From contig JBIOWP010000090.1 in assembly GCA_044868695.1 (NCBI GenBank), forward strand, positions 1-12,421: a stretch of 12,421 bases of DNA, written 5' to 3'. The notes under the pieces were generated by a model. That model was not told the origin of the DNA. It ran no database searches and saw only the letters and a list, made by a program, of their open reading frames with translations. The translations under genes were made by a program, and so were the position numbers. This DNA is from a bacterium. Its GTDB lineage: Bacteria; Sysuimicrobiota; Sysuimicrobiia; Sysuimicrobiales; Kaftiobacteriaceae. This document shows positions 2,546 to 5,508 of the stretch, piece by piece (the stretch's first letter is position 1; the number at the start of each line of letters is the position of its first letter).

Positions 2546-3589
2546 ATGGCGCAGCGAACAGACGTCCGGCAACGCCCAGCCCCGACGAGTACCACGCGGG
2601 TGCCGGTGCGCGTATTCTCCGGGATCCAGCCGACCGGCGTCGTGCACATCGGCAATTACGTCGGTGCGATCCGGCAGTGGGCCCAACTGCAGCGGGAGTT
2701 CGAGTCCTACTTCTGCATCGTCGATCTGCACGCGGTCACGGTGCCGTACGATCCGCCCGAATTCCCGCAGCGGGTGCTGGAAGCGGCCGCGGCCAACGTC
2801 GCCGCCGGGATCGATCCTGCGCAGTCGGTGCTGTTCGTGCAGTCTCACGTTCCCGAGCACTGCGAGTTGATGTGGCTGCTCAACGTCCTGACGCCCGTGG
2901 GGCAGCTCGAGCGCATGACCCAGTTCAAAGAAAAGAGCCGCCGGGCCAAGACCGGGGTGATGGCCGGGTTGCTCAACTATCCAGTCCTACAGGCTGCGGA
3001 CGTGCTGCTGTACAAGGCGTCGCTCGTGCCGGTGGGGGAGGACCAGGTGCAGCACGTCGAGCTGATGCGGGACATCGCCGAGCGTTTCAACAAGCAGTAC
3101 GGCGAGACGTTTCCGCTGCCGGCGGTGCGGCTGACCAAGGGCGCGCGCATCATGGCCCTCAACGATCCCAAGGCCAAGATGAGCAAGAGCGTGGCGGGCA
3201 GCTACATCGCGCTGGTGGAAGATCCCGAGTCGATCCGCAAGAAGGTGCGGGCGGCGGTGACCGATCCCGGTCCGCCGGCGAAGGGATCGAAGCTGGACGA
3301 CGCGAGTCCCGGCGTGGCGAACCTGTTCACGCTGCTGGAGGTGTTCGCGCCGCAACGCTACCAGGAGTTTGCGGAGGCGTACCGCCAGGGGACGATCCGG
3401 TACAGCGAGCTGAAGCAGGCGCTGGCCGACGCGATCGTAAACACGTTTGCGCCGGTGCGCGAGCGGTACCGGCAGCTGGTGGGCCGCCCGGACGACGTCC
3501 GGGATATCCTGACCGACGGCGCGCGCCGCGCCCGCCCTGTGGCGGAAACGACCATGGACGAAGTCAGAAGGAGAATGGGGTTGCGATGA
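2546..3589 (+). CDS. trpS: Tryptophanyl-tRNA synthetase
   Basis: FSGIQPTG.VHIGNY (HIGH motif), FCIVDLHAVT, FVQSHVPEH, RMTQFKEK, YPVLQAADVLLY, VPVGEDQ.QH.EL.RDIA.RFN, KMSKS. The start could be somewhat later because the first ~18 aa are low complexity. Confidence 0.97.
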   Translation: MAQRTDVRQRPAPTSTTRVPVRVFSGIQPTGVVHIGNYVGAIRQWAQLQREFESYFCIVDLHAVTVPYDPPEFPQRVLEAAAANVAAGIDPAQSVLFVQSHVPEHCELMWLLNVLTPVGQLERMTQFKEKSRRAKTGVMAGLLNYPVLQAADVLLYKASLVPVGEDQVQHVELMRDIAERFNKQYGETFPLPAVRLTKGARIMALNDPKAKMSKSVAGSYIALVEDPESIRKKVRAAVTDPGPPAKGSKLDDASPGVANLFTLLEVFAPQRYQEFAEAYRQGTIRYSELKQALADAIVNTFAPVRERYRQLVGRPDDVRDILTDGARRARPVAETTMDEVRRRMGLR

Positions 3590-3705
3590 GGCTAAACCGG
3601 GGGACCAGGGACCAGGGACCGGGGACCGGACCGTGCGGTGGCGATTCACAGAGTATTTCCTGGTCCCGGGTCCCGGGTCCCCGGTCCCGCAGCGTCGTAT
3701 CATGA
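3586..3705 (+). CDS. Putative 39-aa bridging mini-ORF between trpS and trpF (translation unproven)
   Basis: ATG 3586 overlaps the trpS TGA and TGA 3703-3705 overlaps the trpF ATG 3702. Reads [45 protein letters not shown] at 3568-3573. The peptide is repeat-derived with no recognisable family. Confidence 0.4.
   Translation: MRLNRGTRDQGPGTGPCGGDSQSISWSRVPGPRSRSVVS
3601..3688. repeat. Inverted pair of heptamer tandem arrays, (GGGACCR)x4 ... (NGGTCCC)x4, forming a long hairpin
   Basis: Left arm GGGACCA GGGACCA GGGACCG GGGACCG (3601-3628). Right arm TGGTCCC GGGTCCC GGGTCCC CGGTCCC (3661-3688). Four GGGACC/GGTCCC 6-bp blocks pair; spacer about 30 nt. Confidence 0.92.
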
Positions 3706-4331
3706 CCCGGATCAAGATCTGTGGTATCGCGGATGTCGACTCCGCGCTCGTGGCCGCCGAGGCCGGCGCGGACGCGGTCGGTCTGATCTTTGCTCCGAGC
3801 CGGCGGCAGGTGCCCCCCGAGCGGGCGGCCGAGATCGCGGCCTCCCTGCCGCCGTTCGTATCCAAAGTGGGCGTGTTTGTCGACGAAGCGCCGGCCAGAA
3901 TCGAGGAGCTCGTGGCCGCCTGCGGCCTGGATGCCGTGCAGCTCCACGGCAGCGAGCCGGCGGAGGCGTGCGAGGCGTTTCGTGTTCCGGTGATCAAGGC
4001 GATCCGCGTGAAGGACGCGTCATCGCTTGCATTGATGGACGGGTTTCGGGTGGGCGCGTTCCTGCTGGACACGTACGATGCCTCTGCCCTGGGTGGGACG
4101 GGAAAGATCTTCGACTGGTCCCTGGCTGCCCGCGCGGCGCAAATCCGCCGCATCATCCTCTCCGGCGGGCTCACCGTTGACACTGTGGCCGGTGGGCTCG
4201 ACCGTGTGCGTCCTTACGGGGTGGATGTCAGCAGCGGCGTGGAGACCGGCGGGCGCAAGGATCACGCGAAGATTCGAGCGTTCGTCCGGCGTGTGCGGGA
4301 GTGGGATGCTGCACAGGTGCGCGATGAGTAG
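3702..4331 (+). CDS. trpF: Phosphoribosylanthranilate isomerase
   Basis: MTRIKICGI (canonical TrpF N-terminus with catalytic Cys), [30 protein letters not shown]...[23 protein letters not shown]. Start placed at ATG 3702 rather than the track's GTG 3633. Confidence 0.95.
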
Positions 4332-5508
4332 CGTGACCGAGAAGGGCCGCTTCGGCAAGTACGGTGGGCGCTACGTTCCCGAAACGCTCATCCCCGCGCT
4401 GGAAGAGCTTGAGCGCGAATACGATCGTTACCGGCAGGACCAGAAGTTCCAGGAGGAGCTGACCTATTATCTGCGCCGGTACTGCGGCCGGCCCACACCC
4501 CTGTACTTTGCCGAGCGCCTCACCGAGCGGCTGGGAGGCGCCGCCGTCTACCTCAAGCGAGAAGACCTCCTGCACACCGGCGCGCACAAGATCAACAACA
4601 CCATGGGCCAGGTGCTGCTCGCGCGGCGCATGGGGAGACGGCGGGTGATCGCCGAAACCGGCGCCGGCCAGCACGGGGTGGCCACCGCGACGGCCGCGGC
4701 GATGTTCGGCCTCGAGTGCGAGGTGTACATGGGCTCCGAGGACATGATCCGCCAGGAGCTCAACGTATTCCGGATGCGGCTGCTCGGCGCGCGGGTGATC
4801 CCCGTGGAGAGCGGCAGCCGGACGCTCAAGGATGCGATCAACGAGGCGCTCCGCGATTGGGTGACCAACGTCCGGACGACCTTCTATGTCATCGGCTCGG
4901 TGGTCGGCCCCCACCCGTACCCGACGATGGTCCGTGATTTTCAGTCCGTCATCGGCAGGGAGGCCCGCGCGCAGATCCAGGAGGAGCGGGGGCGGCTTCC
5001 CGAGTACCTGGTCGCCTGCGTCGGGGGCGGCAGCAACGCCATGGGTCTGTTCTATCCTTTCAAGGACGATGCGGGCGTGAAGATGGTCGGCGTTGAGGCC
5101 GGCGGGCTGGGGCTCGCCACCGGACAGCACGCGGCGACCCTCGGCGTGGGAAGGCCGGGCGTGCTTCACGGCGCGTTTTCGTACCTGCTCCAAGACGGGG
5201 GTGGGCAGGTCGCGTCCACGCACTCTGTGTCCGCGGGGTTGGACTATCCCGGGGTGGGACCGGAGCACAGCTACTTCAAAGATACAGGCCGGGCGCAGTA
5301 CGTCGCCGTGACCGACCAGGAAGCGCTGGCCGGGTTCCGGCTCCTGGCCGAGACCGAAGGCATTATTCCCGCGCTTGAGCCAGCCCACGCGATCGCCCAC
5401 CTGCGCACACTGGCGCCGGCGCTCGGCCGGGAGCAGGCCATCGTCGTCGGGTTGTCCGGCCGCGGCGACAAGGACGTCCAGCATGTGTCCAGGATCCTCA
5501 GGCCATGA
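4324..5508 (+). CDS. trpB: Tryptophan synthase beta chain
   Basis: [30 protein letters not shown] (PLP lysine), [40 protein letters not shown]. Start ATG 4324 overlaps the trpF end by 8 nt; the track start at 4078 lies inside trpF. Confidence 0.98.

Follow-up and report, generated by a model that had tools for sequence, protein, structure and literature searches.

A hairpin with heptamer arms that probably entered an overlapping stop/start codon between trpS and trpF in a bacterial trp operon

The stretch of DNA analysed here (the window) is an entire contig of 12,421 nt (C90) from a draft genome (G000) of 2.59 Mb, which comprises 162 contigs and has 66.9% G+C. By Pfam the contig carries the trp genes trpG, trpD, trpC, trpS, trpF, trpB and trpA, and between two of these, trpS and trpF, lies a small element with inverted arms of tandem heptamers, which is the subject of this study. 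The gene trpS, an open reading frame (ORF) on the forward strand at 2546-3589, encodes a tryptophanyl-tRNA synthetase (TrpRS; Pfam tRNA-synt_1b, 9.5e-76) inside the trp operon and terminates with a TGA at 3587-3589. On the same strand, trpF (3702-4331) encodes phosphoribosylanthranilate (PRA) isomerase (Pfam PRAI, 6.2e-44), and its start at 3702 agrees with the N-termini of its relatives (MTR[VI]KICG). The gene order trpC-trpS-trpF is conserved at 18 of the 19 loci from relatives. Family-wide, trpS is found inside the trp operon, with trpC on one side and trpF on the other.

The two genes are separated by 112 bases (3590-3701), and all features of this spacer are given here for the forward strand. 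It begins with a left outer flank of 11 nt (3590-3600), followed by a G-rich arm of four GGGACCN units (3601-3628), found by a pattern scan and by Tandem Repeats Finder (TRF; period 7 at 3601-3627). A unique loop of 32-34 nt (3629-3660), with no significant match elsewhere in the genome, leads to a C-rich arm of four NGGTCCC units (3661-3688; pattern scan, and TRF period 7 at 3662-3689), which is the inverted complement of the G-rich arm and is predicted to pair with it. The spacer ends with a right outer flank of 13 nt (3689-3701) that has no match in a scan for Shine-Dalgarno (SD) sequences. When folded by itself, the element reaches a predicted -67.4 kcal/mol, with a stem whose 27-28-nt arms form 4 x 6 bp with bulges; in this copy all four of the seventh positions are unpaired or wobble. 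The longer segment 3570-3720 has a predicted fold of -82.5 kcal/mol (z -4.05), a value equalled by 1 of 200 shuffles.

On both of its sides the spacer is bounded by the same four bases. At the left ATGA (3586-3589) the trpS stop (...TTG CGA TGA) overlaps an ATG, and at the right ATGA (3702-3705) the trpF start (ATG ACC CGG) overlaps the stop of a mini-ORF. This bridging ORF of 39 codons runs from ATG 3586 to TGA 3703-3705, in frame with a long spurious ORF at 2677-3705, and its layout is complete: the start overlaps the trpS stop, the frame is open, and the stop overlaps the trpF start. An earlier note, made from the sequence alone, had described the two ATGAs and the open frame that joins them, and the sequence and its translation confirm this description. 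The same is true of its remarks on initiation signals. Within the 3' end of trpS, at 3568-3580, an AAGGAG (3568-3573) is followed by a GGGG (3577-3580), and the AAGGAG stands 12 nt ahead of ATG 3586, whereas no 4-mer of AAGGAGGTG is present 5-18 nt before ATG 3702 of trpF.

Both ATGAs are dictated by conserved codons, namely the Arg-stop of TrpS and the Met-Thr of TrpF. The point that needs an explanation is that these four bases are present twice. Removal of 116 nt restores a stop/start overlap and leaves both proteins unaltered, as the earlier note had pointed out. Junctions elsewhere in the trp operon overlap in a like manner (GTGA 147-150, GTGA 1747-1750 and ATGA 5505-5508), and -4 NTGA overlaps make up 19.7% of the co-directional junctions of the genome. 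An origin of the spacer as a tandem duplication of the junction sequence was rejected, since by eye its flanks are unlike the ends of trpS or trpF.

If the element was inserted into an overlap, an empty site might survive in relatives, as the earlier note had suggested, and such a site was indeed found. We compared the trpS-trpF junction among 12 relatives with the same type of TrpRS, keeping apart six whose TrpRS is divergent. A single ATGA overlap is present in L019, which belongs to another family of the same order, and a GTGA overlap is present in L002-L004. Other palindromic inserts, at exactly this junction, are carried by 8 of the 12: GGGATCN arrays, inverted arrays of GGGATTA/GGGAGTA, or a different palindromic repeat. 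In the six relatives with divergent TrpRS, the genes at the junction overlap by a short stretch or are set apart by a short spacer. None of our conclusions depends on the unpublished genome G033. Since L019 has the same ...ATGGGGYTGCG-ATGA before its overlapping trpF start, the former initiation context of trpF appears to be kept at the left ATGA; the segment 3568-3580 probably served ribosome binding at trpF in the ancestor and would now serve the left ATGA.

A palindromic repeat containing ...CATTGCGAG...GAAGCAATC... and its complement stands at the same junction in L005, L006, L016 and L020, which represent two genera.

Contigs from four soil-metagenome runs were compared with positions 3300-4000 of the window. 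The filled form is present in run X2 within a contig of 3,960 nt, and in runs X4 and X5 in contigs of 225 nt with 0-1 differences. X4 and X5 further hold a contig of 109 nt in which position 3561 is joined to 3703 via 25 other letters. These letters give the same TrpS C-terminus, with AGG TGA overlapping GTG ACC, and thus represent a form shorter by 116 nt, in which stop and start overlap in GTGA. Upstream of the joint this contig differs from the reference at 6 of 54 bases, so the empty form is that of a sister lineage, a different strain. Judging from these contigs, filled and empty forms coexist among close relatives. For three other pairs of the repeat (C107:59500-64300) the metagenome contigs offered no clean empty site, and the joints seen there were other copies of the family aligning to the arms. 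On the strength of the junctions compared, we consider it highly probable that the element was inserted into an ancestral stop/start overlap. With an empty counterpart still present in relatives and in soils that also hold the filled form, this split overlap makes a clean before-and-after pair, which lets one ask how hairpins enter the tightest junctions and how they affect coupled translation.

The spacer is a copy of a small dispersed repeat, as had been supposed in the earlier note. A relaxed scan of the genome detected 76 arms at 53 loci, arranged as 23 inverted pairs and 30 solo arrays, and exactly four units are present in 58 of the 76 arms. This genome has 113 occurrences of the three-unit GGGACCN pattern, as compared with 2 of a reversed control, and each of 21 relatives from the same family has only 0-12; the expansion of GGGACCN is therefore specific to this lineage. 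All 23 pairs have the same orientation, with the G-rich arm 5', then the loop, then the C-rich arm 3'. Their loops, 19-113 nt long, resemble neither each other nor the rest of the genome, and no source was found in the genome for the trpS-trpF loop (34 nt) or for the 22 others, the sole exception to loop uniqueness being one locus that appears on two contig ends. The outer flanks of the family are weakly conserved, with A at -6 and -5 (0.64 bits) and C at -1. At the seventh bases of the 23 pairs, Watson-Crick pairs were found in 6 of 86 cases where 25.4 +/- 3.8 were expected, and G opposite G is absent; the seventh bases are so rarely complementary that mismatches or wobbles interrupt the stems at intervals of seven bases. 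The whole genome holds 359 tandem arrays with units of 7-9 nt (at least 2.8 copies) belonging to dozens of unit families, and 210 of these have about four copies irrespective of unit or base composition.

The locus that appears twice (C36:13075-13140 and C127:200-293) has 2 units per arm on one contig end and 4 on the other, reflecting either a collapse in the assembly or variation in the population.

To place the loci relative to genes we used our own crude caller based on codon usage, in which stops are exact and starts approximate. Of the 53 loci, 36 lie at co-directional stop-to-start junctions, 4 at convergent junctions and 1 at a divergent junction, and the remaining 12 are within called genes, at contig ends or beside a single gene end. 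Since 82% of all junctions in the genome are co-directional (median gap 13 nt), only the avoidance of divergent spacers, which contain 25% of the intergenic bases, is notable. Among solo arrays at co-directional junctions, the sense strand is the G-rich one in 13 cases as opposed to 3. One (GGGACCN)4 array of 27 nt (C87:18953-18979) lies in frame 250 nt into a called gene and, from its sequence, looks like an insertion tolerated inside a protein.

The earlier note had also proposed that the ATGA is duplicated upon insertion, and this proposal found support at single junctions but not in the family as a whole. We compared six other junctions of G000 with five relatives each. Together with trpS-trpF, three elements of G000 occupy junctions whose orthologs overlap in relatives, and an NTGA stands on both sides of all three. 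At C139:2110 the G000 sequence is GTGA...GTGA, where relative G009 overlaps and relative G004 has a spacer of 13 nt, and at C62:14399 it is GTGA...ATGA, where relatives G004 and G029 overlap. However, direct repeats of 4 nt flank 10 of the 23 pairs family-wide, against 10.0 in a mismatched-partner control (a test of low power), and the distances from the NTGA to the arms vary, being 11/13 nt at trpS-trpF, 4/7 at C139:2110 and 11/5 at C62:14399. A short duplication upon insertion is thus plausible from the three split overlaps, while a fixed transposon end is unsupported, given the negative family-wide test and the variable distances.

To which class of elements does this repeat belong? Heptamer repeats rich in G have been described in Xanthomonas (unit GGGAATC) and in Nostoc by Rehm et al. 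(2015, PMC4692102), who report a preference for four units, convergent pairs, sites between aligned ORFs, rarity between divergent ORFs and a strand rule, all of which are shared by the repeat described here. Our family likewise has a tandem 7-nt unit containing GGG, prefers four units and follows the same ORF placement and strand rule. The identical GGGACCN unit is found in X. translucens, Pseudoxanthomonas and others. Within our species collection, (GGGACCN)4 is present in ~2,100 stretches across phyla, with carriers that include Xanthomonas translucens, Pseudoxanthomonas, Rhodanobacteraceae, Acidobacteriota and Gemmatimonadota, and both orientations are present at 41 of the 124 loci that we retrieved. 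The repeat studied here differs from those of PMC4692102 in that it resides in another phylum, its seventh positions are hardly ever complementary, and its trpS-trpF copy splits an overlapping stop/start. We are very confident of the identity of the element and of its family: the trpS-trpF copy is an ordinary member of a known repeat class in an unusually informative position.

A second kinship emerged with genes of the Pfam family 23S_rRNA_IVP. In this bacterial family, 19 of 33 such genes (at least 30 bits) are flanked by inverted arrays of 7-9-nt units, as compared with 1 of 66 offset controls. In G000 itself the arrays bracket 3 of the 4 IVP genes (C150:3820-4137, C29:16118-16438 and C157:172-465), and in five Xanthomonadales genomes, by our own reading, 6 of 7. 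Four Xanthomonadales IVP cassettes (L222-L225), hosted by Xanthomonas translucens, Xanthomonas sp. and Pseudoxanthomonas wuyuanensis, lie between carA and carB. Two of these genomes (Pseudoxanthomonas wuyuanensis and Xanthomonas translucens) have GGGACCN arms and the other two have GGGACTC arms at the same junction; the unit of the arms thus varies although the position of the cassette does not.

The link between arrays and 23S_rRNA_IVP genes (bAvd-like) was first met by chance in G009 (L172, G009:C30 780-1300), where the ORF of guaA continues across the right-hand arm.

An intervening sequence (IVS) in the 23S rRNA of Coxiella burnetii contains an IVP-type gene, a terminal stem of 28 bp and heptamer repeats, and is excised by RNase III (PMC4990558). 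The trpS-trpF element resembles that IVS in its terminal inverted repeats, its stem of ~28 bp and its heptamers of varying number, as well as in being seen as selfish. Unlike the rRNA insertions, it stands between two protein genes rather than in helix 25 or 45 of 23S rRNA, and its loop of 32-34 nt has no S23p/IVP ORF; the element is therefore at most an ORF-less sibling of the IVP cassettes. The portion of PMC4692102 at hand contains 0 occurrences of the terms S23p, IVS and RNase III, and no paper linking dispersed heptamer pairs to IVP genes was found in a search that excluded subscription journals. By its sequence features, the element is best filed with the heptamer-repeat class described in Xanthomonas, as the cargo-less form of heptamer-armed IVP cassettes.

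We propose that the trpS-trpF element is an ORF-less heptamer hairpin that was inserted into an NTGA overlap and is carried as a neutral or selfish passenger, an explanation that we regard as probable overall. It reads as such a passenger and not as a regulator of trp. According to this model, an ancestral 4-nt NTGA stop/start overlap would have received the hairpin, leaving an NTGA on both sides and both genes whole, and the operon mRNA would fold there into a hairpin with 28-nt arms and a bulge at every seventh base. The arms cannot hold a stop in any frame, and the open stretch of 39 codons most likely arose as a passive by-product of this. Ribosomes finishing trpS would probably restart at the left ATGA, since it retains the initiation context of trpF, then traverse the hairpin and restart at trpF. 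Alternatively, the stem might be cut by RNase III, as in the intervening sequences of rRNA.

The properties of the bridging frame agree with a passive origin. No stop codon occurs in any of the six frames of GGGACCN arrays, and the part of the trpS-trpF element that could hold a stop is ~60 nt. When these stop-capable bases were shuffled, the bridging frame was open in 0.59 or 0.53 of the trials, and the frame relation adds a chance of 1 in 3. The open frame in this copy is by itself unremarkable. A passive relay of ribosomes through it is nevertheless reasonable here, because the old initiation context of trpF stands at the left ATGA and because, according to a review (PMC12548453), coupling weakens rapidly as the distance grows or when structure follows the stop. 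The mini-ORF has a -4 overlap at each of its ends, a layout that the same source gives as the commonest for coupling. Unlike ordinary NTGA coupling, however, two couplings would act here in series via a 39-codon filler ORF inside a repeat, an arrangement of which we found no described example in a limited literature search. That the relay really carries the translation of trpF is a tentative suggestion, which we would not favour on the junction sequences; the relay is possible, yet unproven, and it is not a rule of the family.

Could the relay instead be what the family has evolved for? In that explanation, which is close to that of the earlier note, the repeats are built to be transparent to translation; they colonise coupled junctions, duplicate the NTGA and pass ribosomes on through a bridging ORF, possibly serving as a control point. 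The exact double-NTGA layout of the trpS-trpF copy and the lack of an SD at trpF speak for it, as do the same layout at C62:14399 (GTGA...ATGA) and an ORF at C139:2110 that stops 6 nt before the start, and so does the rapid drop of coupling with distance and post-stop structure. At the 36 co-directional junctions, the upstream ORF enters the element in 14 and its stop precedes the array in 22. A start codon is present at the stop in 14 of those 22, and 12 of these 14 ORFs reach the downstream start, where 8.5 were expected (P=0.035, marginal), while 2 end in the loop. The stops upstream of elements are of the form [AGT]TGA in 12 of 22 cases, against a genome-wide fraction of 0.337 (P=0.035, marginal). 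In all, 19 of the 36 junctions are translated through, and the downstream gene has an SD at 10. However, the rules for the bridging and NTGA analyses were chosen after the data had been inspected, both P values are marginal, and the bridging statistics of the family are suggestive at best. Moreover, other units used by relatives, such as GGGATTA, can contain stops, and we see no tie to tryptophan control. We consider it unlikely that the family is an adapted relay, and a relay that evolved as a property of the element is likewise improbable.

Several observations weigh against our preferred explanation, or at least against the relay that may accompany it. Bridging frame and SD are both absent at 12 of the 36 junctions, and bridging is not associated with absence of an SD across the 36 (Fisher P=1.0). 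At the trpS-trpF junction itself, just 5 of the 9 filled genomes bridge. The gene starts in these counts rest on our crude gene caller, and the folding, cleavage and translation of the element are all predictions. None of the 4 IVP genes in the G000 assembly has GGGACCN arms, and the direct-repeat test for a target duplication was negative, as described above. The loops are unique and give no hint of how copies are made. Finally, at some junctions relatives have hairpins of quite different units: at four other junctions of G000 they carry hairpins of GGGAACA, TGACTCG, GGGATCN or 8-/9-mers, or plain spacers with an SD. Junction hairpins may therefore have been either inserted repeatedly or rewritten in place.

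The 12 junctions with neither a bridging frame nor an SD would be accommodated by the alternative route, in which the element acts as an intervening sequence of the mRNA: RNase III would cut the stem and split the trp transcript, and translation of trpF would proceed from the 5' end left by processing and no longer depend on trpS. With 27-28 nt, the arms agree with the stem (28 bp) of the Coxiella IVS, an element that RNase III excises (PMC4990558); the same arm design surrounds IVP genes, and G000 has a gene with an RNase III domain (122.8 bits). Nonetheless, the scarcity of Watson-Crick pairs at the seventh positions (6/86 vs 25.4) leaves a bulged helix whose acceptance by RNase III is uncertain, and the trpS-trpF copy is outside rRNA and has no ORF. 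We regard this route, too, as improbable for the trpS-trpF element.

A more general and speculative view would treat all heptamer-armed hairpins as "mRNA intervening sequences", whose stop-free, bulged arms settle in coupled junctions of zero length and rebuild the NTGA on both sides. They would then be read through as relay ORFs or as terminal protein tails, or be excised by RNase III, and the operon would tolerate them as rRNA tolerates its IVS. We offer this generalisation as a conjecture with a small chance of being correct. If either the relay or the RNase III reading is true, we would understand how operons can be riddled, yet not broken, by a repeat class that is very common and so far unexplained.

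The arms of the element, with four GGG tracts each, also raise the possibility of a G-quadruplex (G4) or another structure that regulates the trp operon as an attenuator, a terminator or a determinant of mRNA stability. G4 formation in vitro was shown for Xanthomonas units (PMC4692102), and the isolated arm is predicted by ViennaRNA to form a G4 (-15.3 vs -12.2 kcal/mol). The whole element, in contrast, is predicted to fold as the hairpin of -67.4 kcal/mol whether G4s are allowed or not. Relatives use units that are not G-rich, such as TGACTCG, likewise with four per arm, and about four copies are present whatever the unit (210 of the 359 arrays), which argues against G-quadruplexes as the unifying principle. 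As for a terminator, no U-run follows the GC-rich stem (GCAGCGTCGTATC comes next), and no promoter-like or terminator-like sites were detected at the element (3590-3701). The window has no Rfam match at the gathering score, and the same element occurs at dozens of unrelated junctions. A regulatory role of this type is very unlikely.

Repetitive extragenic palindromic (REP) sequences and their composite forms (BIMEs, REPINs) are short extragenic palindromes found within operons at the 3' ends of genes, as singlets and inverted doublets. An origin of our element as a classical miniature inverted-repeat transposable element (MITE), or as a REP/REPIN moved by a REP-associated tyrosine transposase (RAYT), is hardly credible: in spite of its terminal inverted arms, its occurrence as single and inverted double copies at the 3' ends of genes, the presence of two Y1_Tnp genes in the genome (54 and 35.8 bits) and a GTAG or GCAG beside some arms, the family shows no target-site duplication, its loops have nothing in common, CTAC is directly beside just 7 of 76 arms, and the two RAYT candidates fall short of the NCBIfam threshold (76.7 and 65.9 vs 80) and are flanked by other repeats. 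In addition, the arms here are tandem arrays rather than one imperfect palindrome, the spacers are unique, and no RAYT is bracketed by them. The MITE was rejected because the test for a target-site duplication of fixed length was negative and the loops of the 23 pairs have no conserved internal sequence, and the REP/REPIN-RAYT system because no RAYT gene is flanked by GGGACCN repeats.

The two RAYT-like Y1 transposase genes (C2:12513-12839 and C20:15880-16206; L021 and L022) lie near contig ends, and the repeats around them are GGTGCCAGGCACC palindromes and a tandem array of 15-nt units, not GGGACCN arrays.

Two further observations concern the trp operon. In the six relatives that were kept apart in the junction comparison (L007-L010, L013 and L018), the TrpRS encoded at the same place in the operon is just 34-37% identical, a divergence that suggests replacement of the gene at a fixed operon position. 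The second concerns the beginning of the window, where a tandem array of 8-nt units of the GGGAAC type (TRF 97-140) codes for the final ~17 residues of TrpE. The TrpE ORF with this repeat-coded tail terminates in the GTGA overlap with trpG at 147-150, and the trp operon has in this array a second one, translated as a protein tail.

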